Of a stretch of DNA of 64,000 nt, positions 5,346-63,006 are shown piece by piece. The notes below the pieces were generated by a model. The model had not been told where the DNA came from, searched no databases, and was given only the letters and a program-made list of their open reading frames with translations. The position numbers were made by a program, and so were the translations under genes. Numbering within the stretch: position 1 is the stretch's first letter; every line of letters begins with the position of its first letter. This stretch comes from Magnetococcales bacterium (GTDB lineage Bacteria; Pseudomonadota; Magnetococcia; Magnetococcales; UBA8363), in assembly GCA_015228925.1 (NCBI GenBank), contig JADGCQ010000005.1, positions 3,394 through 67,393 on the forward strand. The letters are read 5' to 3'.

Positions 5346-6728
5346 TTAACCCTTGACCGATTCATTCTGAGTGATGAACGTATGATAGGGAAGATCCAGA
5401 ATATGGTGAAAGGTGATGATGATGGCTACCATGAAGGTGATCAGACAGGCGGCGAAATATCCAAAACCATAATAGGGAAAGCCAAGATTCATCGATAACA
5501 GCGAGAAGACAAAGTTGGATAGCAGGAAGATGAAACTAACCTGTAATGCCTTGCGGCGACAATCAAAATAGGACAAAAGAATATTCATGAACAAAATACA
5601 GACGTGGTAAAATGCCCCCAACACCCCCAGCCGATACATCCCCATCTGTTTAAAGTTGATGCCAAACCAGGTAAACAGATGCGGTGCCATCAAAATAGCC
5701 AACAGGCTGATCCCCCCCTGGAGAATCAAAAAATTACGCCCGCTCACATGCACCGCTTCGATCAGTTGTTTATGATTGTCCCGGATGACCTGAAAATTGG
5801 CGTGTTTTTGAATGTCTCGGTAAAATTTTAAATAATGTTCATAAAATCGAGTCTCCATGCTCAACACAAAGGAGGCCATGGAGGGGACGATGGAAAGATA
5901 GGCGAGAAACATGGCACTATCATAGTTGGAATAGGAGAGAAATCCCCCGGCCACCACATCTCTTTCTGGACAAAACCACATGATCCATTTGTCCACCCAA
6001 GCGGCCAAATTAAACGTCAAACCGACCAGGGCCAAATCCCAATACCGCCTGAAATAGGGGAGAAATCCGAAAAAGTTTTTGGCTTCATAGGGATATTCGG
6101 CAAAGACCCGGGCGATGATCCCAAACAGGATGATGGCCAACCCCGCATTGAAACCAAAAAACATCCCCACCACCCCCAGATCCTTGGCCAAAAAAGGGTT
6201 GGAAATGCCACCAAACGCCATGCCGATAAGAAAAATACGGATAACCATTTTATAATCTTTGAGTGCGGTGATAAAAATGGTCACCAACCAGACACCATTG
6301 ATCAAAAAATAATTGATGAAGGCACTGAGTGCCGTCATAAACTCAATATCGACATAGAAAAAATAAAATAAAAAAGCCAGCGGAAACTGTATCGCATAGA
6401 TCAAAATCAATCCCCCCAGGAGGGCACCGGGGGCTTTTTCCACCTCTTTCAGAAAAATCAAATCGGAGATATACCGGGTAAGCACCATCACAATGGGGCC
6501 GGATATCACCAAAGAAAATGAAAAATTATAAATGATAGCAATGCGAAAGGTAATCTGTTGCTCGACGGTGGTAAAATACGATCCCAGAGCCACAATCCCC
6601 GTGAGGGCCAGGATGGTGAACAACCAGGGGCCGGTCGCCACCAATGCCGAATAACCAAATCCGCTCAAAAGGCCAATCAGATTGTCCTTGGTCGTCAGAT
6701 TACGCAATACAAAACCGATACCGGCCAT
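5346..6728 (-). CDS. pelG: Pel polysaccharide biosynthesis membrane protein PelG
   Basis: 460 aa polytopic membrane protein starting MAGIGFVLRNL, typical of PelG. It is the last gene of the pel-ordered operon. Confidence 0.8.
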   Translation of the reverse strand: MAGIGFVLRNLTTKDNLIGLLSGFGYSALVATGPWLFTILALTGIVALGSYFTTVEQQITFRIAIIYNFSFSLVISGPIVMVLTRYISDLIFLKEVEKAPGALLGGLILIYAIQFPLAFLFYFFYVDIEFMTALSAFINYFLINGVWLVTIFITALKDYKMVIRIFLIGMAFGGISNPFLAKDLGVVGMFFGFNAGLAIILFGIIARVFAEYPYEAKNFFGFLPYFRRYWDLALVGLTFNLAAWVDKWIMWFCPERDVVAGGFLSYSNYDSAMFLAYLSIVPSMASFVLSMETRFYEHYLKFYRDIQKHANFQVIRDNHKQLIEAVHVSGRNFLILQGGISLLAILMAPHLFTWFGINFKQMGMYRLGVLGAFYHVCILFMNILLSYFDCRRKALQVSFIFLLSNFVFSLLSMNLGFPYYGFGYFAACLITFMVAIIITFHHILDLPYHTFITQNESVKG

Positions 6729-6731
6729 GCT

Positions 6732-8309
6732 TTAAACCTCGTCGAGACGGCTGGTGGGACATTGGCATAAGCCGGTATAAATCTCCCGGTAGGTCTGTGT
6801 CAGGGTATCCTGGTCATAATAGGTTTTGACCCGTTGGCGAATCGCCTGGGAACATTGTTGCCACCAGGAGGGTTGCGTCAACAGACGTGCCAACTCCTGG
6901 GCCGTCTCGGATGGATTGGAAACCCGTGTCACCGCCCCCCCCGGCCCCAATGGGGGATCCTCCGTCGCCATCCCCAAGATCATCTCACGACAGGCCCCCA
7001 CATCGGTCGCCACCGTCGGAACACCGGCAGCCCCCGCCTCCAAAATCACCAAAGGTTGCCCCTCACTGATGCTGGTCAATACCAACACATCAATCTTGCC
7101 CAAATAGTCCACCAAGTTGACCCGACCCGTGAATACAACCATCTCCTGCAACCGAAAATGATGGATCAACCCCATGCACTCTTCATAATAGCCTTCATCC
7201 TCTTCCGTCGGTCCCATCACCAGAGCCATGGCTGTGGGAACCGCATGGCGCAGAATGGCGCACGCCTGAATGAATCCTTTGATATCTTTGATGGGGACCA
7301 CCCGGCCAATCAAGGCGATGGTGGGGGGTCTGCTCCCCTTGTCGGAGACCAAATTTTCAAACCGACGCCAAGCAATCCCATTGGGAATCACCCGCATTTT
7401 CTCAGGGTCAGCCCCATCCGCCTTCTGGAAATCCTGATTACCCCCATAGATGGTGATGATCTGATCACACGCCTGGTAGCAAGCTTTGGAATAAGCCTGG
7501 AACGCATGAATCCACAGTTTGCGGCAATCATTGCGATGCCCTTCCAACTGCAAACCGGCATGGGGATCCTCATAAAGCCAGTCGGCCATGGTGATTTCGA
7601 TACGACGTTCATTGGTGTAGATACCGTGTTCACAGACAATCACCGGACGATGGGTTTCCAGACGGGCACGGGCGAGAAAAAGACCAGCATAGCCCGTGGA
7701 CAGGGAATGATAGGTCTTGGCCTTGGGGAGGTCGGCAAGGAGAATGGTGAACAGATTTCCGGCAAGATAACGCCAAGTCCAAAAAAAGTCCAAAAACGGC
7801 CCCCCCGGCAACAACCGCTCATAAAGTTTCAACAAAAGCTCCCAGGCAGGTTTGGAATTCAATAACCACCCTGGATCCAGACGCCGTTCATAGGGTGCCA
7901 ACGTTGCAATGATCTGCCGCAACGCCGGCAGCCCCCCCTCCTCCTGAAATTGATACAACCCCTGTTCCAAAGCGGCAAACAAGGCGACCGGAAGTTCCCG
8001 ATACCCCAACTTCCCCTGGGGTGGGGCCAGGGTGACATGGGTGATCCCATGGACGTTGGCGGGAATCTCATAACGGGTCTGAAGTTTTTGATTGGGTGCC
8101 AAAAGGGTCAGAAGGTGAAAACGAAATTCGGGGAGACTCTGGATCAGTTCATGAACCCAACCCGAAACGCCACCCGCCACGTAAGGATATGTCCCCTCGA
8201 CAATCAGACAGATATCGATATCTTCCACACCCGACGCCGAAGCCTTGGATCTGCCGATCAAGGATTTGGACCATTTCCAAGCACCCGGATTCCATAAGCG
8301 GGTCATCAT
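6732..8309 (-). CDS. pelF: Pel glycosyltransferase PelF (GT4 family)
   Basis: DICLIVEGTYPYVAGGVSGWVHELI N-terminal motif and the C-terminal GT4 E-x7-E region (SEGQPLVILEAGAAGVP). The start was chosen at ATG 8309, which overlaps the pelE stop (ATGA). Confidence 0.9.
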   Translation of the reverse strand: MMTRLWNPGAWKWSKSLIGRSKASASGVEDIDICLIVEGTYPYVAGGVSGWVHELIQSLPEFRFHLLTLLAPNQKLQTRYEIPANVHGITHVTLAPPQGKLGYRELPVALFAALEQGLYQFQEEGGLPALRQIIATLAPYERRLDPGWLLNSKPAWELLLKLYERLLPGGPFLDFFWTWRYLAGNLFTILLADLPKAKTYHSLSTGYAGLFLARARLETHRPVIVCEHGIYTNERRIEITMADWLYEDPHAGLQLEGHRNDCRKLWIHAFQAYSKACYQACDQIITIYGGNQDFQKADGADPEKMRVIPNGIAWRRFENLVSDKGSRPPTIALIGRVVPIKDIKGFIQACAILRHAVPTAMALVMGPTEEDEGYYEECMGLIHHFRLQEMVVFTGRVNLVDYLGKIDVLVLTSISEGQPLVILEAGAAGVPTVATDVGACREMILGMATEDPPLGPGGAVTRVSNPSETAQELARLLTQPSWWQQCSQAIRQRVKTYYDQDTLTQTYREIYTGLCQCPTSRLDEV

Positions 8310-9910
8310 GACACAGCCAGATGCGTTTGAATTTGCGCTTCGATGCGCGCCGCCCATTGCGCCAGATTTTGAGAATCCATATCGACAAATTGCACTTTGG
8401 TTTTGGCTTCGGTTTTCAACTGCCTTTGGGCCATATCGGTGGCCAGCGCGGTCAGAATATCGGGCTTGCCACGAATGATGGGGATAAAATCTTGGATCGA
8501 AATTTCCAGCAGCCGACATTTTTCAGTCAATGCCAAGCAATTGGCATTTCGTTTGGCCCCGGTCAACAAAGACATCTCACCAAAATAATTCCCCTCACCC
8601 AGTCGCGCCACCTCCATCGATCCTTGGCCAGGGGTATCCAAGGTCACCACAACCATACCGGAAACAATCAAGTAAAAAGAGTCCCCCGTTTCACCCTGAC
8701 GAACAATGGTTTCCCCCTCCTTGTACTCAAGAACCTTCCCCGCCTTGACCAAGGAGGTCCGTTCAGGAACACTGAAGAATTGGAAAATCGGCACATGATG
8801 CAGACCATCGCCATTATACCATCCCGACCATAAATCCACCGTATCTCGGATACGGACCATCCAATCTTCGTCACCCAAAAACAGCTTTCGGTGGTGCTGG
8901 GACAACGCCGCCAGTTGATCAAACCGTTTCAGCTTGAACAAAGTCTCCATGGCCCAAAGGACCATTGGGTGGGTCGCCTCCCCGTGACGCAGGGTCGCCT
9001 CAAAAAATTCCGCAGCCTCCTCCAGTGCCCCGGAACGGACCAAAGTTCGTCCCAAAGCGATGGCGATCCCGTGGTCCCCAGGTCGCCCCGCCAGACAGGC
9101 ACGATATCCAGCGATGGCCTTTTGGCGATTTTCCCCCTCCCGGACCGGATCCAACAACCCTGTAAAGGCAAAATCATCATAATGCCGAGCGACCGTCAAA
9201 ACCAGTTCCATATCCTCAGGATGATGTTCCAGTTGTTGCTCAAACGCCATGGTACGACGCATGAAACTGTTTTCAACATGAGAAATGGCCGTCGCCGCTT
9301 GAACCCGGACCGCATTGTCGGCATTGTTCACCGCTTCCCGCAGTACCGGTGCAAACGCAGGTTTAAAATGGCGTGACATTTTGGCAATCATGGTTTGTTT
9401 TTGTTCCTGCGTCCCATAGGCCAAAATATCCATGAACGGCGTCAAAGCTGCGTTGGCATTGGCCCCCTGGCTTTCAATCCGGGACATGAGTTCCATGGAG
9501 GCATGGATAAAATCGGCGGGAAACAAACTTTCATACCATTCCTCAAAGGAGGTCGCCGTTTTACGATATTCCCAAAACAGCCCAAAGGCCAACATAACAC
9601 CGATAATCCCCACAAACCCCATCATGCCGGTCGCCAGGGGGAGAAGATAATAAAATCCGTTGAGGCACGGAGATGGCCTGTTTCTTCCGCGATACCACGC
9701 CCAGAAAAACAGCACCAAAGCCAAGACACTGTGCCATCCGATCAAATAGACCGGGGTTTTCAGGGGATCCAACCCATACTCCCAAAACATGCCCCACAAC
9801 AGCGCAATCTGGAGGAGACACACCAGCAGACACAGCAGCATAAACCAAAAAGCGCAAGAAAAATCCCGTTCATCCGCCAACGGTTCCATGGAAATGGGAG
9901 AACCGGACAT
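8306..9910 (-). CDS. pelE: PelE-like TM/TPR protein fused to a C-terminal cyclic-nucleotide-binding (CAP_ED) domain
   Basis: Sits at the position of pelE in the operon. N-terminal TM helices, then a helical TPR-like middle region. The C-terminus reads FFSVPERTSLVKAGKVLEYKEGETIVRQGETGDSFYLIVSGMVVV...YFGEMSLLTGAKRNAN. Confidence 0.7.
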   Translation of the reverse strand: MSGSPISMEPLADERDFSCAFWFMLLCLLVCLLQIALLWGMFWEYGLDPLKTPVYLIGWHSVLALVLFFWAWYRGRNRPSPCLNGFYYLLPLATGMMGFVGIIGVMLAFGLFWEYRKTATSFEEWYESLFPADFIHASMELMSRIESQGANANAALTPFMDILAYGTQEQKQTMIAKMSRHFKPAFAPVLREAVNNADNAVRVQAATAISHVENSFMRRTMAFEQQLEHHPEDMELVLTVARHYDDFAFTGLLDPVREGENRQKAIAGYRACLAGRPGDHGIAIALGRTLVRSGALEEAAEFFEATLRHGEATHPMVLWAMETLFKLKRFDQLAALSQHHRKLFLGDEDWMVRIRDTVDLWSGWYNGDGLHHVPIFQFFSVPERTSLVKAGKVLEYKEGETIVRQGETGDSFYLIVSGMVVVTLDTPGQGSMEVARLGEGNYFGEMSLLTGAKRNANCLALTEKCRLLEISIQDFIPIIRGKPDILTALATDMAQRQLKTEAKTKVQFVDMDSQNLAQWAARIEAQIQTHLAVS

Positions 9911-11390: not shown

Positions 11391-12302
11391 TTATTTGGGA
11401 GGTAACGACAACTCCAGAATATCAACATCAATGGTGTTCTCTTTCTTTGGTTTTTCGTCGTTTTTGGCCAAAGCTTTTTCCTTGGCCCGCCTTTCCTCCT
11501 CCCCTTTTTTCATCAACAGGCTACGTTGTTCAAAAAGTTTGGCGCAGGCTTCATCCAGTTCACCCAATACCGGATCGCCCTGTTGATGATGCATTGTCCC
11601 CGCATCATTGCCCGGACTTTGCCGCCCCACACCACGAACTCTTCCCACCGTAACCTGGCCAGAAGGGGGTGCCGTTGCCACTGTTTCCTCCTTCGGCATA
11701 GATTCTTTCTTGGCATCAACCGCTTTGGACAATTTGCCAACGGTATTGTGAACCGCTTTCTGGGCGGTGTAATAAATACTTTCCCGACTTAAAAAACCCG
11801 AACCCATCAACGATTGACTGGCACGCCACAATACGACACCATCGCGAATACGCACCAATTGCACATTAAAACCGACTGCCGGCTCTTCTCGTAACCCATG
11901 CTGGTAGGAAAACTCCGACACGCTCCCCGTCAAAACCGCATCCACAAACAACCCCGTCCCCACATCCCGCGCGATGGAAACATCGGCCAATCGATCCATA
12001 TCGACTTTGAGTCCAATCAACTGCCGCCGCATTTCACTTTCCTCCAACAAGCAAAACTGCTTGCTGGCCATCAATTCGGTGGCAAACAATTGGGCCACGG
12101 ACAATCCAGCGGTAGGACTGTTGCTCAGATTTTCAAATGGCAAAACCGCGACAGTCAGTGGCGAATTTTTTTCCAGTTCTTCATGGACAAATGAGCGATT
12201 GACCCCCATGGCGCAACCAAACAAACCGAGAGCCACCAAACCTATCGCTATTTTGACACGCGATATTGGCCCTGTACAACCGGAAAGCGAACGTTCATTC
12301 AT
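11391..12302 (-). CDS. pelC: PelC-like outer-membrane lipoprotein with a roughly 130-aa charged C-terminal extension
   Basis: Lipobox LGLFGC. VAVLPFENLSNSPTAGLSVAQLFATEL is PelC-like. The Lys/Glu-rich tail is absent from the roughly 170-aa canonical PelC. Confidence 0.65.
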   Translation of the reverse strand: MNERSLSGCTGPISRVKIAIGLVALGLFGCAMGVNRSFVHEELEKNSPLTVAVLPFENLSNSPTAGLSVAQLFATELMASKQFCLLEESEMRRQLIGLKVDMDRLADVSIARDVGTGLFVDAVLTGSVSEFSYQHGLREEPAVGFNVQLVRIRDGVVLWRASQSLMGSGFLSRESIYYTAQKAVHNTVGKLSKAVDAKKESMPKEETVATAPPSGQVTVGRVRGVGRQSPGNDAGTMHHQQGDPVLGELDEACAKLFEQRSLLMKKGEEERRAKEKALAKNDEKPKKENTIDVDILELSLPPK

Positions 12303-42961: not shown

Positions 42962-43115
42962 TCAAAGGCCCGTCAAACGAAACACCAGAAAACTTGTAAA
43001 AAATCTCATCCGCCAACCCAGCACACTTGATAACGCACCGAAACTCATGTTAGTAGAGGGGCGGGTGTTCTTCAATTAAACATGAACCTCAAACCGGTTC
43101 GATGGTATCGTGCCT

Positions 43116-43382
43116 CTATTCAAAAACCTCCAGCAAAGTCACCGCACGTCCCTTCTGGAACTGCGCAACCGCACGACCTACCTCTGGCCGGAAATCCTTC
43201 GGACGTGCCGGAACGCAGGGACGACCTTGACTTGCAGCATCCGGGCAAAAACACTCCTCGAAGTGGAGGGTGCCTTGCTTGAATTGCAAGATGCAGGTTT
43301 TTTCATCTTTCACAAATCCACCGACGGCCAGTCGGATCCTCCAAAGCTTTACCGCCTTCAAATCCAGGGAATTACCGACCAT
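43116..43382 (-). CDS. Hypothetical protein (88 aa); strand and extent uncertain
   Basis: Its codon usage looks more gene-like than that of the overlapping + strand ORF. No SD and no domain were found. Confidence 0.2.
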   Translation of the reverse strand: MVGNSLDLKAVKLWRIRLAVGGFVKDEKTCILQFKQGTLHFEECFCPDAASQGRPCVPARPKDFRPEVGRAVAQFQKGRAVTLLEVFE

Positions 43383-43449
43383 TTCAAACAGGTCATCAAT
43401 TCGATGGAACCCGCCCCCCTGCCCCGCCCCAAAGGGCTGGTACAGAAAA

Positions 43450-43638
43450 TCAAGTCACGTCTTCTCGGCGCATAATCCGAGCAAAGTCTTTGACGGATTG
43501 GACTCTTGCTTTTGTTACCGTCATGTCTTTGGCAGCCAATAAAGCCTTTTCCAGGTAAAACCGGCCCAAAACGTCACATCCAGGCACCAGATACCCGAAA
43601 GTGCTACCTTTTTTAAGCTCCATTACGGTGTTAAGCAA
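43450..43638 (-). CDS. Hypothetical protein (62 aa); may be the 5' part of a frameshifted gene continuing into 43116..43454
   Basis: This ORF ends exactly where the downstream ORF's frame opens. Confidence 0.2.
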   Translation of the reverse strand: MLNTVMELKKGSTFGYLVPGCDVLGRFYLEKALLAAKDMTVTKARVQSVKDFARIMRREDVT

Positions 43639-43692
43639 TTATCGGACCATAACAACGCAAAGACCGAAACTGATCGACAACACATCAAGAGT

Positions 43693-44793
43693 TCAGATAA
43701 AATTCATGTGGGGAACGGACTGCGTTTCAATGTGATGCAGATATCGATTGATTTCGTCCATACGGCAGTTGACACGGCACTCGGAAATATCCAATTCTTT
43801 CATCACAAATTCAAATCCTCTGCGCCGCCCTTCCCCTTCCCAAATCTCTTGAAAAGAATTTTCATTGATATTGCCATATTCAAATCGTTGATCAAGCAGG
43901 AACGCACTACACCCGGATACGGTGCCGTTGGCCATGATAAAGGCCCATAGGAACGGTGTGGCGTAACACCGTTGATAACGATTCTCGTCCGTGAATTTTT
44001 GCATGGTATGGTCCCGAAATACGAGAAAGAAATCTTTCGTATTCAAATGCGACAGCGAATCACCGTATCCGATAAACTTCTGGTAATCCAATTGTTTATA
44101 CCGTTGCGTCTTGCTGAACAAATGCTGAGAGTAGGGCTTGACGACAAGATAATCCAGCCCAATGTCATCACGACATCGTTTCGCCAACATTTCTATTTCA
44201 TGATAATTTTCTTCCAACAACAATATTTGCGCACCCAGCGTACAGGTAAGATGATGGTCTCGTTTATGACGCACCATGGCCGTCATGTTGGCAATGGCCT
44301 TATCAAAATCACCCGGCTTTGTTTGATGCAATGCGGCATAGGTCTCAGCGGTTCCGGCATTGATGGAAACCTTAAGGCATGAAAGGTGTTGCAAGGCGTG
44401 ATCAATAAAATCAGGGGGCATGACGGTCGCGTTTGTCGTGATAGCCACATCGATACCCGCCGCTTTGGTCATGGCGACAATGCGTGCCATCTCCTTATGT
44501 AACAAAGGTTCTCCTTCTCCGGCATACATGATGCTCTTGACCCCAAGCCGCCCCATCTCTGGAATGCGTGTCGCCAGAAGTTCGACATCCAATCGGGCCG
44601 ATTGATAACCGATATAATCGACAGCACAAAAAACGCATCGATGATTACAGGCACCGACCGGGGCGATTTCAACATAAATCGGATAAACCGTCCGCGCTCG
44701 TTCCCACCCGCCCTGGACCGCCAGAACACGGGCGACCCTGTCGGGATGATAAATCATTTTATGGTCATCGATACGATAAGGATCACGGCTCAC
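43693..44793 (-). CDS. Radical SAM enzyme with a Cys-containing C-terminal auxiliary region
   Basis: CxxxCxxC motif in APVGACNHRCVFCAV and the GEGEPLL motif. C-terminal cysteines occur in GCSAF...ECRVNCR. GTG 44793 has a gggaga SD; the ORF is open up to 44868. Confidence 0.8.
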   Translation of the reverse strand: MSRDPYRIDDHKMIYHPDRVARVLAVQGGWERARTVYPIYVEIAPVGACNHRCVFCAVDYIGYQSARLDVELLATRIPEMGRLGVKSIMYAGEGEPLLHKEMARIVAMTKAAGIDVAITTNATVMPPDFIDHALQHLSCLKVSINAGTAETYAALHQTKPGDFDKAIANMTAMVRHKRDHHLTCTLGAQILLLEENYHEIEMLAKRCRDDIGLDYLVVKPYSQHLFSKTQRYKQLDYQKFIGYGDSLSHLNTKDFFLVFRDHTMQKFTDENRYQRCYATPFLWAFIMANGTVSGCSAFLLDQRFEYGNINENSFQEIWEGEGRRRGFEFVMKELDISECRVNCRMDEINRYLHHIETQSVPHMNFI

Positions 44794-45031
44794 GGCACTA
44801 TCTCCCGTTTTAACGGTTAATGAAGCCCCCCAATCCAAGCTTCGTTTGGAACAAAGAGAGATTTCCAAAAAAATCTTGGTTTGTAAACTGGCGCAAGGTG
44901 AATGGTTATTCTAATGCAAAAAACATATCACTTTTAAAATAATCCATTGAACTATTTAATGATAACTGATATTTTACGTACCATGCTCATAAGATTATGA
45001 CATTCCACAATTTTCTGATTGGGAGTTTACC

Positions 45032-46393
45032 ATGGACCGATTTTTGTTTCGCTGCACCCGATGGTTTCTCTTGGCACTGTTGGGCCTGTCATTATTTTTT
45101 TCCGGGGTTGGCGGTGCCCAGGCGGGCAACGGACTCACCCTGGCCCTCTACCCCTATGTTCCCCGCCTTGACCAGTTCACCACCACCATCCAGGCGGCCT
45201 GGTCTGCGGCCTATCCCGATATTCCCCTGACAATCATCGCGGATGACAAGGTCTGGGATGGCGGCTACAGCATGGATCCGCCGGATGATGTGGATGTATT
45301 TGTTTTCGACGCCACGTTTCTTGCTTACTTCCAAAGTAAAAATAATCTGTCTTCCCTGAGTGCCAGCGAGGTCAACAACGCCGATGATTTTCTCCCCTTT
45401 GCCATCGATGGTGTCAAACAAAGCGACAATACTTACGCCGCCATCCCCCTGCTAGGATGCACCAATGTACTCTTTTACTGGAACACCGACACCGGTATAG
45501 CCCAGGCTTCAACCCTGAACGACCTCGACCAAGTTCTTCACGAGTGTACCTACACCAGCGACATTCCGCCCGACATCCGCGGTCTGATGGTCAAAGGGAG
45601 TGCCTCCAGCAACAGCTATCGTTATAGTGAACTTTACTACGCTCAATATGGCACCCTGCCCTCCCTCAGTGGCACGGCCCTCGATCCAACCGTGGTGGCC
45701 AACGGCAACACCCTGCTCTCCATGGGCAGTTATCTCAACAGCAACTATAAATCCTCCGACAGCTATATCATGTCAACATGGTTCAGCAAAAAATATGGCG
45801 AGGCCATGGTAGGCTATACCGAATCCCTTTCCGCCATGACCCAATCCATGCGCGATTCGGTAGCCATGAAACTGTTACCCATGGGCAACAAGGGCTATCG
45901 GCCCACATTTTATGCCGATGTCATCGGCATCAACAGCACAACCCAAGGGCGTGGTACACGAAACGCCGCAGTGGCTTTGGCCAATCTTCTGGCCTCCACC
46001 GATGTCGTGGTAGACAGCATCAAGGCAACCAGTTCCGCGCCGGCTCAATACCTGATGCCCACCCGATCCAGTGCCTTCACCGCCCTGAAAAACAACGACA
46101 CTCTTTATCAAGCCATCGACCAGATGGTCACTAGCTCCAATCCCGTATTGTTTGCCCTGGATAAAAATGTTCGGACCTGGATGGATACCATGGAAACCAC
46201 GGTGAACCATGCTTTCTGGTCGGGATACCCTTGTGGATGCGATGTGGATGCTACAGGGATCTTTAACTATGCCCAAGCCCAGAGTACCTGTCCTTCCCTT
46301 TGCACAAGCCAGGGCGGCTGGAGCGGCCAATGGACCAACACCATTCCCGGCCATTCTTCGGTGTGTGGCTGCAATACCTGCCCTTTGCCCTAA
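45032..46393 (+). CDS. Secreted thiaminase-I-like (thiamine pyridinylase, periplasmic-binding-protein fold) protein with a Cys-rich C-terminal domain
   Basis: Signal peptide present. LALYPYVP, DPPDDVDVFVFDATFLAYF, LPFAIDG and PLLGCTNVLFY are collinear with Paenibacillus thiaminase I as I recall it. The last roughly 60 aa contain 7 Cys and a GGW motif. Confidence 0.65.
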   Translation: MDRFLFRCTRWFLLALLGLSLFFSGVGGAQAGNGLTLALYPYVPRLDQFTTTIQAAWSAAYPDIPLTIIADDKVWDGGYSMDPPDDVDVFVFDATFLAYFQSKNNLSSLSASEVNNADDFLPFAIDGVKQSDNTYAAIPLLGCTNVLFYWNTDTGIAQASTLNDLDQVLHECTYTSDIPPDIRGLMVKGSASSNSYRYSELYYAQYGTLPSLSGTALDPTVVANGNTLLSMGSYLNSNYKSSDSYIMSTWFSKKYGEAMVGYTESLSAMTQSMRDSVAMKLLPMGNKGYRPTFYADVIGINSTTQGRGTRNAAVALANLLASTDVVVDSIKATSSAPAQYLMPTRSSAFTALKNNDTLYQAIDQMVTSSNPVLFALDKNVRTWMDTMETTVNHAFWSGYPCGCDVDATGIFNYAQAQSTCPSLCTSQGGWSGQWTNTIPGHSSVCGCNTCPLP

Positions 46394-46579
46394 TCACCAT
46401 GACGAGGGCACATCACCACCACCCAGGGGGGAACTTTTGTTCCCCCCTTTTTTTCATTCCGTATCAAGCCTCCCCCTTCCAAAGAACCTTTTCATGTATG
46501 GCGCGTTTATTGCTTAAACCAATTAACGAAAACAGCAATAACGAAATCTTGACGATACAACATCAAGGGAGCGTCTACC

Positions 46580-46708
46580 GTGAAAACAAGCAACCATTCC
46601 GCTGAACTGGCCATCCTCCAAGAACTTGAAGATTATGAAGAATGGCTTGAATTCTTTATTGAAATTGGTGAAATCAGCGTCAGCGAAGAGTCCGACGGTG
46701 CCCTATAG
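46580..46708 (+). CDS. Small acidic ORF (42 aa, GTG start), absent from the supplied track
   Basis: Hand translation gives VKTSNHSAELAILQELEDYEEWLEFFIEIGEISVSEESDGAL*. An aagggag SD lies 9 nt upstream. Confidence 0.2.
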   Translation: MKTSNHSAELAILQELEDYEEWLEFFIEIGEISVSEESDGAL

Positions 46709-46847
46709 TTTTTGTGGTGCCAATATTCCGTCATAACGGCGTGGTACCTTTCTATACGATACATAACGCTTGCGAATCACCCCCAACGGGTGTAACTTTC
46801 ACATTAACGCATGTAAGTGTAAAATTAACGTCAATCTTTGGGGAAAC

Positions 46848-47930
46848 ATGGCTGCTATCCGAAAACCCTTATGGATTGCCTACATGTTGGCCGCCAGTTG
46901 CCTCTCCTGCTTGGTTTATGCGGGAGCGAACAACGCGCTTGTCATGCTCAATTGGCCGGAATATATCGATTTTGATGTTGTCAAAAAATTTGAACAACAA
47001 ACCGGCAGTTTGTTTCGGATGGTGCTGTTTGAAACCGACGAAGCGCGGGATGAACTGTTGGCAGAAACCGACGGTCATGGGTATGATATCTCACAAATCA
47101 CCTGTGATCGGGTTAATGGTTACGCAAAACAAGGTTGGTTGGCCCCGATGAGTGTCCATCTTGTACCCAACATAAACCATATCGGTCAACGTTGGCTCAC
47201 GGAATTTCCTGGGATTGCCAACTACGCCGTCCCCTTCCATTGGGGTACTCTGGGAATCGCCTACCGCCCCGATCTGCTTGGAGAAAAAATCACCCGGTGG
47301 CTGGATCTCTTCAAACCCTCCGAACGCCTCCGTCAAAAAATTTTGATGGAAAAAGATTCCAGAAATCTGGCGGGAATGGCTTTGAAGGCCAACGGCTACT
47401 CCTGGAACGCCCATGATAAAAAAGCGGTCAAAGCCGCTACCGACACCTTGATCGCCCAACGCCCCTACGTCAAAGCCTATGGCTATCCCTCCATGGACAA
47501 AAACTCTGGATTGGTTACCGGTGAAATCTGGGCGGCCACACTGTACAATGGCGATGTCCGTTCTTTGCAAGCATTTGAACCCAGAATTGCCTACGTTGTC
47601 CCCGATGAGGGGGCATTGTTGTGGATGGATTGTCTGGCGGTCCTGGCGCAATCCCAAAAAAAAGAACAAGCCTACGCCTTCATTAATTTCCTGCACACAC
47701 CCGACAATGCTGCACAAACCGCCAATACCCTGCATTATGCACCAACCAATCAGGCCGCCATCGCCCTCCTTCCCCCTGATTTCCTGAACGATCAGATGAT
47801 CAATCCCCCAGCGGATGTGTTGCGTCGGTCGGAATTCTTTACCGAGCAATGGCCACTCCGCGTTGAAAGAGACTATAAAAATTTACTGAACGGCTTGATC
47901 AATACCGTCAGTGAACCACCAACACATTGA
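46848..47930 (+). CDS. PotD/PotF-family polyamine-type periplasmic substrate-binding protein
   Basis: Signal peptide MAAIRKPLWIAYMLAASCLSCLVYA. LVMLNWPEYID...FEQQTG...YDI... is the typical spermidine/putrescine SBP pattern. No ABC permease or ATPase gene is adjacent. Confidence 0.75.
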   Translation: MAAIRKPLWIAYMLAASCLSCLVYAGANNALVMLNWPEYIDFDVVKKFEQQTGSLFRMVLFETDEARDELLAETDGHGYDISQITCDRVNGYAKQGWLAPMSVHLVPNINHIGQRWLTEFPGIANYAVPFHWGTLGIAYRPDLLGEKITRWLDLFKPSERLRQKILMEKDSRNLAGMALKANGYSWNAHDKKAVKAATDTLIAQRPYVKAYGYPSMDKNSGLVTGEIWAATLYNGDVRSLQAFEPRIAYVVPDEGALLWMDCLAVLAQSQKKEQAYAFINFLHTPDNAAQTANTLHYAPTNQAAIALLPPDFLNDQMINPPADVLRRSEFFTEQWPLRVERDYKNLLNGLINTVSEPPTH

Positions 47931-61548: not shown

Positions 61549-62522
61549 TATTTCGACTTCTCTTTGATCTCTTTATCGAGGACTTCCTTAAAGGCGTCCA
61601 AAGGCACCGCCCCGACCAGCTTCAATCCGTTGATGAAAAACGTTGGGGTTCCCGTGATTCCCAATTGTTGTCCTTCGGCGGAGTCCGAAGCAATGCGAGA
61701 GGCGTGACGACCACTGGTGAGGCACTCATCAAATTTGGCGGTATCCAATTTCAGTTTTGTGGCCAATTCTTTCAAGGCATCCACGGCCAAAGATTGAGAA
61801 TCGGCAAACAATGCATCATGAAAATCCCAAAACTTGCTCTGCTCGTTGGCGCACATGGCCGCCTCCGAGGCTTTCGGGGCGAGCTTATGGAACGGCAGCG
61901 GATAGTGCCGGAATACAAATCGCAGTTTATCACCATAGGTTTCCTTCAATTTACCCAGTACCGCTTGCGCTTTGCGGCAATAGGGACACTCAAAATCGGA
62001 AAACTCAATGATGGTGACCGGGGCGTTGGCCGGACCGCGACTCAAATCTTGGGGGCCGGTGACGGTGTAGCGCGGCTCTTCCAATAAAATTTCTACCTTG
62101 TACCGGCTGGCCAAATCTTCATGGTACTTGGTCTTGGCCAATTTCAGTGCCTGATTTTCCAAAAATGAGTGAACCTTTTCCTTGATGCCGGGATCGTTGG
62201 CTGGAATCTTGGCCTTGTTGGCCTCCATAAACTGCTTGACCTGATCCTCGGTAACCGGTACCAAATATTTGGCCGCCATCTTGTCCACAACCTGATCCTT
62301 GGGAATGTTGTTGGCCTTGGATTCAAGTTCCAACAAATGGTCGAGGACTTCCGCTTCAATCTTTTCAATCCGAAGATCATGGACCTGCCCAGAAATCATG
62401 GTGTCCACCTTGCCAAGATCAAGGGTCCAATCCCCCACACGGGCTGCCGGTTCTCCCTGGACCTGAATGGGCAACAACAGTACAAACAAACTTGAAAGAA
62501 GCAAGCCTTTAATTTTACTCAT
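61548..62522 (-). CDS. DsbA-family thiol:disulfide oxidoreductase with an N-terminal chaperone-like extension
   Basis: Signal peptide MSKIKGLLLSSLFVLLLPIQVQG. Thioredoxin motif FSDFECPYCRKA. Start at ATG 62522 with an aagga SD. Confidence 0.8.
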   Translation of the reverse strand: MSKIKGLLLSSLFVLLLPIQVQGEPAARVGDWTLDLGKVDTMISGQVHDLRIEKIEAEVLDHLLELESKANNIPKDQVVDKMAAKYLVPVTEDQVKQFMEANKAKIPANDPGIKEKVHSFLENQALKLAKTKYHEDLASRYKVEILLEEPRYTVTGPQDLSRGPANAPVTIIEFSDFECPYCRKAQAVLGKLKETYGDKLRFVFRHYPLPFHKLAPKASEAAMCANEQSKFWDFHDALFADSQSLAVDALKELATKLKLDTAKFDECLTSGRHASRIASDSAEGQQLGITGTPTFFINGLKLVGAVPLDAFKEVLDKEIKEKSK

Positions 62523-62574
62523 AAAACGATCCTTGGATAAAGGGAGAAGGGGGGCAAATAAAAAACCATGCTGT

Positions 62575-63006
62575 TCATGAACCATAAATCTGCTCTGCTC
62601 TTTTGCAAAAAGATTCTACCATGGAATGGGATGCCTTGCTAAATACCGGACCCATGGCCAAATCAACCAGCTTTTTACTGAACGTGAAGTCGATGGAAAA
62701 CGCAACCTTCGAACCGTTGGGCATATCGATGAATTGCCACTCACTGTCGAGATGGCTAAAGGGGCCGGATAGATTGGAAATGGTAATGCGATGGGGAGGA
62801 TCCACCTCATCGTAGGTGCAAAAAGTCTCCCGTAACCCCTTAAAAGCAAAGGTCATCTCCGATTTAAATCCCTTTTCGGTGACTTCAAACTTGCGCGATT
62901 TGACCAGCCAGGGGATAAATTCTGGATAGCGATCCATATCGGCGACCAGTTCAAACATTTGCTGTGCCGAAAAAGGGACAAGAACACTGGTGCTACGTTT
63001 AGGCAT
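62575..63006 (-). CDS. SRPBCC/START-fold protein of the RatA / PasT / Coq10 family
   Basis: 143 aa. VPFSAQQMFELVADMDRYPEFIPW...FKGLRETF... is the typical pattern. Confidence 0.8.
   Translation of the reverse strand: MPKRSTSVLVPFSAQQMFELVADMDRYPEFIPWLVKSRKFEVTEKGFKSEMTFAFKGLRETFCTYDEVDPPHRITISNLSGPFSHLDSEWQFIDMPNGSKVAFSIDFTFSKKLVDLAMGPVFSKASHSMVESFCKRAEQIYGS

Follow-up and report, generated by a model that had tools for sequence, protein, structure and literature searches.

Thiaminase I is an enigmatic and sparsely distributed enzyme whose purpose is debated; salvage, competition and support of bacimethrin have all been put forward (PMC5627462, PMC10499793). Two known bacterial examples, BcmE/thiaminase I of Clostridium botulinum (4KYS) and the enzyme of Paenibacillus thiaminolyticus (2THI/3THI/4THI), are exported, and their genes lie in a bacimethrin operon (PMC5627462). 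A Gram-negative example, CcThi1 of Corallococcus sp. EGB, is only ~18-19% identical to the enzymes in the PDB; it carries a type II lipoprotein anchor and is delivered by outer-membrane vesicles, and its ecological role is the depletion of thiamine in a competitor (PMC10499793). Here we examine a thiaminase I gene in a 64,000-nucleotide stretch of DNA from a Magnetococcales bacterium (GenBank assembly GCA_015228925.1, contig JADGCQ010000005.1, positions 3,394 to 67,393; the whole of this stretch is hereafter called the window). Its 453-residue product has the fold, the sequence motifs, the catalytic Cys and Glu and the export of the Clostridium and Paenibacillus enzymes; unlike them, it has a C-terminal module, a Cys at position 172 and Cys residues near its C-terminus. 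In contrast to their operon genes, the gene described here is very probably monocistronic, and the window holds no thiamine genes. Like CcThi1, the protein is a thiaminase I of a Gram-negative organism. However, CcThi1 is kept at the surface by its lipoprotein anchor, whereas the 453-residue protein lacks a lipobox and has a lectin-type tail instead, for which a tethering function is only proposed.

An initial annotation of this DNA, made from the letters alone, had described a plus-strand open reading frame (ORF) for a secreted, thiaminase-I-like protein. The ORF is present exactly as described, with an ATG start and 453 codons, and the enzyme’s identity is borne out by profile, sequence and fold comparisons. 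The NCBIfam equivalog for “thiamine pyridinylase”, TIGR04541, gives the protein a score of 308.1 bits (cut-off 175, E-value 7.7e-92, residues 22-384), and Pfam family PF22141 (Thiaminase-1_dom) gives it 113.3 bits (cut-off 27). Among PDB sequences, it matches the C. botulinum enzyme (4kys) at 2e-50 and the Paenibacillus enzyme (2thi/3thi/4thi) at ~2e-49. E-values this low (about 1e-50 for the thiaminases in the PDB, 7.7e-92 for TIGR04541) exclude a match by chance. A full-length AlphaFold2 model built from 97 homologs had a mean predicted local distance difference test score (pLDDT) of 94.2 and a predicted template-modelling score (pTM) of 0.90. When this model was submitted to Foldseek, the best matches were 4kys and 3thi, with template-modelling scores (TM) of 0.91-0.92, a root-mean-square deviation of 2.0 A, E-values of ~1e-35 and ~30% identity.

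The active site is conserved as well. The motifs quoted in the initial annotation are all found in the protein, and all of them align with solved thiaminase I: LALYPYVP pairs with VAIYPYVP, DPPDDVDVFVFDATFLAYF with DPPDDLDVFVLDSIFLSHF, LPFAIDG with LPFALQG, and LGCTNVLFY with ILCTNLLFY. The Cys of the last motif, which had been assigned to the catalytic region, is Cys143 and aligns to the CTN motif of 2thi, while Glu264 aligns to GYSES. For residue counts and covariation, we aligned 111 sequences (the 453-residue protein plus 110 homologs). The nucleophile Cys143 is kept in 111 of 111 and the activating Glu264 in 110, the sole exception being a fragment. Cys and Glu are the established catalytic pair of thiaminase I and have been verified by mutagenesis in the myxobacterial homolog (PMC10499793). 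In a 19-sequence alignment, Asp296 and Tyr40 are invariant, and position 42 is Tyr or Trp within a YP[YW]VP motif. We take Asp296 to be the pyrimidine-binding Asp of the Paenibacillus structure, and Tyr40 and Tyr42 presumably belong to its Tyr-rich pocket. Judged by its sequence and modeled structure, then, the 453-residue protein is a thiaminase I (EC 2.5.1.2) with a complete set of active-site residues, and its catalytic chemistry can be assigned with high confidence by homology to the characterized enzymes. By the mechanism established for the Clostridium and Paenibacillus enzymes, Glu264 would activate Cys143 for attack on the pyrimidine ring of thiamine; the thiazole would be expelled and an external nucleophile then substituted for it.

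Could the protein be a binding protein for thiamine or another solute that merely has the same fold? The fold of thiaminase I is itself the type II periplasmic-binding-protein fold, SBP_bac_1 is among the precomputed Pfam matches of many homologs, and a PotD-like binding protein is encoded downstream. However, the TIGR04541 score exceeds a curated equivalog cut-off, and the nucleophile and the base are invariant in the family. The fold similarity to thiaminases is also far above that to binding proteins: generic sugar-binding proteins trail in the Foldseek results at E-values of ~1e-15 and TM of ~0.65, some 20 orders of magnitude behind, so the best matches are not generic binding proteins that lack the catalytic Cys. 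Finally, genes for the permease and ATPase of an ATP-binding cassette (ABC) transporter are absent next to the thiaminase gene. We therefore regard a non-enzymatic role as very improbable.

The initial annotation had called the protein secreted, and the protein does carry an export signal. Inspection of the sequence revealed a predicted Sec signal peptide in the first 31 residues. In the AlphaFold2 model, this segment has low pLDDT (54-65) and forms a lone helix at residues 6-21; the mature fold begins at about residue 34, and the alignments to the mature chains in the PDB likewise begin at residues 34-35. By a rough regular-expression search, a lipobox-like signal occurs in eight of the 58 tailed sequences introduced below, as well as in P0027, P0032 and P0047 (for example, “...AASGC” and “...TLSGC”). 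To judge from these signals, such tailed thiaminases may combine a lipid anchor with a lectin tail.

The tail itself had been described as a seven-Cys module resembling either a Cys-knot or a lectin. The count of seven is correct (Cys401, 403, 420, 424, 445, 447 and 450), and the lectin-like alternative is the one that stands. A Pfam search assigns the tail to PF12151 (MVL, “mannan-binding protein”), with 42.8 bits for the full protein and 49 bits for the tail alone (cut-off 25); the same family matched all 24 of the tails tested. A profile built from those 24 tails found the structure of Microcystis viridis lectin (MVL; 1zhq/1zhs) at 2.3e-9, aligning to both of its repeats. When the tail was modeled alone (pLDDT 84), its sole meaningful fold match was 1zhq (probability 1.0, query-based TM score [TMq] 0.66, E-value 0.022), every other match having an E-value above 1.6. 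In the full-length model, the tail is a beta-alpha-beta-beta unit, i.e. a three-stranded sheet and one helix as in MVL, with pLDDT of 93-97. The Cys-knot alternative was ruled out, as matches to defensin and scorpion-toxin folds were at noise level (E-values above 1.6 in the fold search, and an E-value of 4.6 in the PDB sequence search). Thus, on profile and model evidence, the tail is one MVL-type lectin repeat.

To compare tails across genomes, we used one genome per species, in which an alignment-based scan located 80 thiaminase I loci; with the 453-residue protein, this set comprises 81 sequences, of which 58 are tailed (calling by regular expression gave 56 of the 80 loci). The W-x-G-Q-W-T signature, present here as WSGQWT at residues 430-435 (GQW at 432-434), is nearly invariant in the tailed sequences: Trp430 and Trp434 are each found in 58 of 58, Gln433 in 49 and Thr435 in 51. 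The tail resembles MVL in its sequence profile, its fold, the G-Q-W-T motif and its beta-alpha-beta-beta order. MVL, however, has no Cys; its chain holds two repeats, and two such chains pair in a homodimer that offers four glycan sites (PMC3407925). The module of the 453-residue protein is a single repeat at the enzyme’s C-terminus, not the tandem two-repeat layout of MVL; it would have three internal disulfides and be covalently stapled to the enzyme. The same module, with the patterns CP..C ... C.C and W.GQW, occurs in uncharacterized secreted proteins of small size whose MVL repeats contain Cys and in hydrolases tagged with MVL (for example, P0234, P0248, P0288 and P0327). These proteins differ in having two to ten tandem copies or subtilase, ricin-B or 3-keto-disaccharide hydrolase partners, with four Cys residues per repeat; the thiaminase module has in addition the Cys403-Cys450 pair and the staple residue Cys401.

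The pairing of these cysteines can be deduced from their covariation. Cys172 sits in the catalytic-domain segment HECTYTS, and the cysteines of the tail begin with Cys401. In the 111 sequences they covary perfectly: both are present in 95 tailed proteins and both are lost in five others. Tail-less proteins with Cys172 retain a C-terminal Cys, and those without Cys172 have none. This pattern was repeated in the 80 genome-derived sequences, in which the Clostridium and Paenibacillus enzymes have neither Cys. The enzymes of Xenorhabdus and Photorhabdus (L067, L069, L073, L075, L077) have Cys172 and end in “...DFSCEVSP” but have no lectin module; because they keep both cysteines, the staple appears to exist independently of the tail. 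Cys403 and Cys450 also covary perfectly (both in 93 sequences, neither in six, mixed in none), and Cys420, Cys424, Cys445 and Cys447 are those common to generic MVL-type repeats. From this covariation we infer that Cys172-Cys401 is a staple joining the two domains, that Cys403-Cys450 ties together the two ends of the module, and that two further disulfides form among Cys420, Cys424, Cys445 and Cys447, leaving Cys143 free. This map accords with the commonest Cys count in the mature protein, nine, i.e. one free catalytic Cys and four pairs. The predicted disulfides would require an oxidizing compartment, either the periplasm or the outside of the cell. A DsbA-like thioredoxin-fold protein of 345 residues is encoded in the window (61551-62585, minus strand); it fits periplasmic disulfide formation and has no specific link to the thiaminase. 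The neighbors of the five Photorhabdus and Xenorhabdus thiaminase genes include ThiF-family and NUDIX genes.

Tailed enzymes are taxonomically widespread. Of the 111 database hits, some three quarters have both PF12151 and PF22141 in their precomputed annotation, and by alignment almost all of the hits have the tail. The tailed sequences come from Alphaproteobacteria (Aquibium, Breoghania, Terasakiella, Bradyrhizobium, Roseibium, Rhodothalassium), from many filamentous cyanobacteria (Moorena producens, Microseira wollei, Symploca, Okeania, Baaleninema), and from Paraburkholderia, Acidobacteriota, Thermoanaerobaculia, Nitrospirales, Binatia, Desulfovibrio, Sulfurimonas, Phycisphaerae, KSB1 and Cellvibrio. 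In a simple neighbor-joining tree, the common ancestor of the tailed enzymes also covers the five Xenorhabdus/Photorhabdus enzymes that have only the staple and one frameshifted gene; the tailed enzymes are thus not strictly a single clade. To judge from their domain and Cys content, they constitute a large architectural class of stand-alone, lectin-tagged and probably disulfide-stapled thiaminases that spans many phyla. In the gene of a Breoghania sp. metagenome-assembled genome (MAG; L078, ~6001-7268), the tail frame is broken just past “YQCGCDYDAT”; it is either a frameshifted pseudogene or an assembly error. Among the tail-less loci is an archaeal thiaminase I homolog from a Nitrosopumilaceae MAG (L090, 6001-7101) that has kept the catalytic Cys and Glu.

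The module also occurs apart from the enzyme. An exhaustive profile search found it in 645 protein clusters without thiaminase, mostly small secreted proteins with two to five tandem copies, and in fusions with a subtilase, a ricin-B lectin, a 3-keto-disaccharide hydrolase and a CEL-III domain. Such domain company is typical of a carbohydrate-binding module. Several large proteins are built around it (P0232, with 1388 residues, P0288, P0327 and P0350): in one, ten MVL-type repeats are combined with a CEL-III C-terminal domain; in the others, a subtilase carries two repeats, MVL and DUF4476 accompany a ricin-B lectin, and a 3-keto-disaccharide hydrolase domain is joined to three repeats.

What, then, does a lectin module do on a thiaminase? 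Overall, we think it probable that the protein is an exported, two-domain thiaminase I that is held at a glycan surface by its lectin module; for the tail considered by itself, such tethering is the likeliest of the roles that we weighed, with odds that are even or somewhat better. Four considerations favor it. The W-x-G-Q-W-T signature common to MVL is almost invariant across phyla; the module acts as a mobile binding unit in other proteins; myxobacteria meet the same problem of retention with a lipid anchor (PMC10499793); and MVL binds the Man-GlcNAc-GlcNAc core (Man, mannose; GlcNAc, N-acetylglucosamine) of oligomannosides (PMC3407925). In this proposal, the module would bind a glycan, probably a beta-linked GlcNAc/Man-type polymer, and would thereby hold the enzyme on a carbohydrate surface, be it the producer’s own envelope or exopolysaccharide or the wall of another organism. 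Cleavage of thiamine would then be local, serving either pyrimidine salvage or the deprivation of neighbors of vitamin B1, and the lectin would take the place of the lipoprotein anchor used by the myxobacterial thiaminase I.

Several observations weigh against this proposal. In a Gram-negative host, a Sec signal takes a protein only as far as the periplasm. The binding site is incompletely conserved. The residues that we take to be the glycan contacts of MVL are Trp13, Asn15, Gln36, Trp37 and Thr38. The last three are retained as Gln433, Trp434 and Thr435, whereas Phe411 and Tyr413 stand at the positions presumed to match Trp13 and Asn15. In the tailed sequences, the former position may be Pro, Phe, Ala, Trp or Leu, and the latter is Asn in 37 of 58. 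Because this half of the site is poorly kept, glycan binding or its specificity may differ from that of MVL or be lost in the 453-residue protein. A single repeat would bind weakly unless the enzyme oligomerizes. A cap with a purely structural role would account just as well for the high pTM and the staple disulfide. Moreover, no thiamine transporter, salvage gene or thiamine pyrophosphate (TPP) riboswitch lies nearby to point to a physiological role.

Such a cap would have lost sugar binding altogether, with a mini-domain of four disulfides stabilizing the C-terminus of the exported enzyme against proteases or unfolding. The unconserved Trp13 position, the Tyr found here at the presumed position of Asn15, and the presence of one copy rather than the two repeats of an MVL chain all speak for a cap, as does the rigid docking (pTM 0.90) and covalent stapling of the module; moreover, Xenorhabdus and Photorhabdus retain the staple without the module, which implies that the staple is of value by itself. 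Against this, near-absolute conservation across phyla of a signature common to MVL exceeds what a scaffold would need, and the module accompanies lectins and secreted hydrolases elsewhere, as is typical of a binding module. We consider a purely structural role possible but distinctly less probable than glycan tethering.

The tail might instead shape catalysis, by docking near the cleft and selecting the nucleophile or a thiamine analogue, or by bearing a second, glycosidase-like activity. Rigid docking and covalent attachment would suit this idea too, and a title cited in PMC10655256 speaks of an “unprecedented glycosidase activity” at the carbohydrate site of MVL. The genomic context of the tailed enzymes also differs from that of the bacimethrin-operon enzymes, suggesting a different role. 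However, the catalytic-domain residues are the same as in the tail-less enzymes. In the active site of MVL, the acidic residue is presumably Asp75, which aligns to Ala16; its counterpart in the 453-residue protein is Ala414, and most of the tailed enzymes have Ala or Ser there. A catalytic contribution of the tail thus seems unlikely.

Returning to glycan tethering, we advance a wider proposal only tentatively: the lectin-tagged thiaminases could be a distinct, widespread class of glycan-targeted degraders of vitamin B1. The module would direct the enzyme to the producer’s matrix, or to walls or N-glycan-like cores belonging to algae, fungi, protists or animal mucus, and thiamine would be destroyed, or its pyrimidine captured, right at that interface. 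Because its members include cyanobacteria that form blooms and mats (Moorena, Microseira, Symploca, Okeania) as well as aquatic Alphaproteobacteria, the class might represent an overlooked environmental source of thiaminase I, with relevance to thiamine-deficiency syndromes in aquatic food webs. If the module binds glycans, it offers a testable handle on where the tailed enzymes act and who benefits from them, and it would point to candidate microbial sources of the enzyme’s activity in aquatic systems.

Parts of this picture were already known. The NCBI entry “MAG: thiamine pyridinylase [Magnetococcales bacterium]” is identical in sequence to the 453-residue protein and is correctly named, and each of the two domains belongs to an established Pfam family. 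Three elements seem to be new: the large group of stand-alone, lectin-tagged thiaminases, the proposed disulfide map, and the contrast with the bacimethrin-operon enzymes. In the literature searched, which is an incomplete library, we found no description of thiaminase I combined with MVL; papers there that name thiaminase I together with lectins do so only incidentally, and the sole paper found to cite PF12151 is a survey of cyanobacterial lectins in which thiamine is unmentioned. To our knowledge, no member of the tailed class has been characterized. Many of the thiaminase I genes in the environment (58 of 81 sequences) belong to this separate architectural class. The gene in the window is otherwise ordinary, with a correct name in NCBI and a neighbor that is coincidental, as discussed below. 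The features of the locus are listed in the table.

Table. Features of the thiaminase locus; coordinates are positions in the window
Feature	Coordinates	Strand	Basis and remarks
Radical SAM/SPASM gene, 366 codons from GTG at 44793	43693..44793	-	Radical_SAM and SPASM domains
Divergent intergenic region, 35% G+C	44794..45031	.	From likely radical SAM start to thiaminase start; no riboswitch detected
Thiaminase I (thiamine pyridinylase) gene	45032..46393	+	ATG start, 453 codons plus stop; TIGR04541, PF22141, PF12151 and PDB matches
Predicted Sec signal peptide, residues 1-31	45032..45124	+	Basic n-region, hydrophobic core, AQA|G, no lipobox
Catalytic domain, type II periplasmic-binding-protein fold, residues 32-400	45125..46231	+	AlphaFold2 pLDDT 94; Foldseek matches to 4kys and 3thi
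Tyr40 and Tyr42			Key residues of catalytic domain
Cys143 codon	45458-45460	+	Key residue of catalytic domain
Cys172, putative inter-domain staple partner of Cys401	45545..45547	+	Cys covariation in 111 sequences and 80 genome loci
Glu264 codon	45821-45823	+	Key residue of catalytic domain
Asp296 codon	45917-45919	+	Key residue of catalytic domain
Cys-rich MVL-type lectin module, residues 401-453	46232..46390	+	PF12151; tail profile to 1zhq; fold match
Intrinsic-terminator-like hairpin (10 bp, 7 GC pairs), then T-run	46425..46458	+	Starts 32 nt past thiaminase stop

The surroundings of the gene differ from those of the bacimethrin-type enzymes. A GGGAG Shine-Dalgarno sequence lies 6 nt 5' of the thiaminase ATG, and because a strong hairpin with a T-run follows downstream, we consider the gene very probably monocistronic. 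For each of the 80 thiaminase loci, every ORF within 6 kb was assigned to a cluster. No neighbor family is conserved over the 56 tailed loci (called by regular expression), the largest real families spanning four to seven closely related genomes; one neighbor cluster of 38 loci proved to be merely an antisense ORF inside the thiaminase gene. Bacimethrin-type neighbors (thymidylate-synthase-like, deoxyribosyltransferase-like and methyltransferase genes) lie upstream in 13 of the 24 tail-less loci and in none of the tailed ones, and ThiD is encoded downstream in seven of those tail-less loci. Genes of a bcmABCD(E) cluster are absent from the 64-kb window, and the protein is thus not a BcmE in the strict sense. 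None of the ~35 window ORFs scanned is a thiamine gene.

Riboswitches were equally scarce. No Rfam model reached its gathering score anywhere in the window, and in 43000-47000 no relevant match had an E-value of 1 or less; the sole match there, to a ylbH leader (E-value 0.13) on the opposite strand over the terminator, was taken as chance. TPP riboswitches were absent from 17 homolog loci, but this is a weak negative, as they were also absent from the bacimethrin-operon loci L083 and L087. A regular expression for TPP riboswitches was discarded because it left the control loci unmatched, too. In one genome, that of Salidesulfovibrio onnuriiensis (L007, 7394-10971), the thiaminase gene adjoins a gene for a CD3072-family, TudS-like desulfidase and an operon for a CD3073-family energy-coupling factor (ECF) transporter, and a c-di-GMP-I-GGC riboswitch (65 bits, gathering score 59) is found at 11719-11793. 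A link to the uptake of thio-pyrimidines or thiamine fragments is speculative and would be a single case. Although it has the look of an importer of thiamine or of its hydroxymethylpyrimidine moiety (HMP), the transporter is a CD3073-family member with the desulfidase as its partner.

The radical SAM/SPASM gene is transcribed divergently from the thiaminase gene, as the initial annotation had noted, but the AT-rich spacer of about 160 bp given there (163 bp, 30% G+C) applies only to the longest ORF (43693..44868, minus strand). The true start is likely the GTG at 44793, since it has a good Shine-Dalgarno sequence (GGGAG) and gives a product of 366 residues, comparable to the 365-366 residues of orthologs; the spacer would then be 238 bp. 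The functional link that had been suggested between the two genes finds no support. Might the radical SAM enzyme nonetheless modify the Cys-rich tail or cooperate in thiamine or pyrimidine metabolism? The genes are adjacent and divergent and share an AT-rich spacer; SPASM enzymes often modify Cys-containing peptides, and the weak NCBIfam matches of this protein include peptide maturases. However, co-occurrence is absent: no radical SAM homolog was found within 6 kb of the 80 thiaminase I loci (BLAST against 2212 ORFs, E-value of at most 1e-5), no such gene adjoins the thiaminase in six metagenomic neighborhoods of close thiaminase homologs, and no thiaminase lies near the three radical SAM orthologs on long contigs. 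In addition, disulfides would account for all seven tail cysteines, export by Sec would separate the tail from a cytoplasmic Fe-S enzyme, and the window has neither thiamine genes nor a TPP riboswitch. Such a partnership is hardly credible; the adjacency is coincidental, and the radical SAM gene has no part in the thiaminase system.

The tightly conserved family of this radical SAM protein counts more than 5000 members; the top 120 hits share at least 59% identity, and many come from Magnetococcales. Source databases mislabel the protein as MoaA / GTP 3',8-cyclase. In two of the three ortholog contexts (L009, L010), the gene lies among sugar-nucleotide genes, including HldE-like (CTP_transf_like plus PfkB), split transketolase, SIS and epimerase genes, and the family may thus act in the modification of sugar nucleotides or polysaccharides.

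Other features of the window are listed here for completeness. Between the thiaminase terminator and the PotD-like gene is a candidate ORF with a GTG start (46580-46708, plus strand), which has a GGGAG Shine-Dalgarno sequence 8 nt upstream and would encode a very acidic peptide of 42 residues (VKTSNHSAELAILQELEDYEEWLEFFIEIGEISVSEESDGAL). The PotD-like solute-binding protein (46770-47930) heads a plus-strand series extending to 53023, in which it is followed by a hybrid histidine kinase of 1026 residues and a response-regulator/kinase of 662 residues. The absence of ABC permease and ATPase genes and the kinase genes directly downstream suggest that it is a sensory binding protein rather than a transporter component. 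Far upstream on the minus strand (5349-8519), amid many GGDEF/EAL/PAS signaling proteins, are Pel-type exopolysaccharide genes, with PelG (425 bits) adjoining a PelF-like gene (DUF3492 plus glycosyltransferase).

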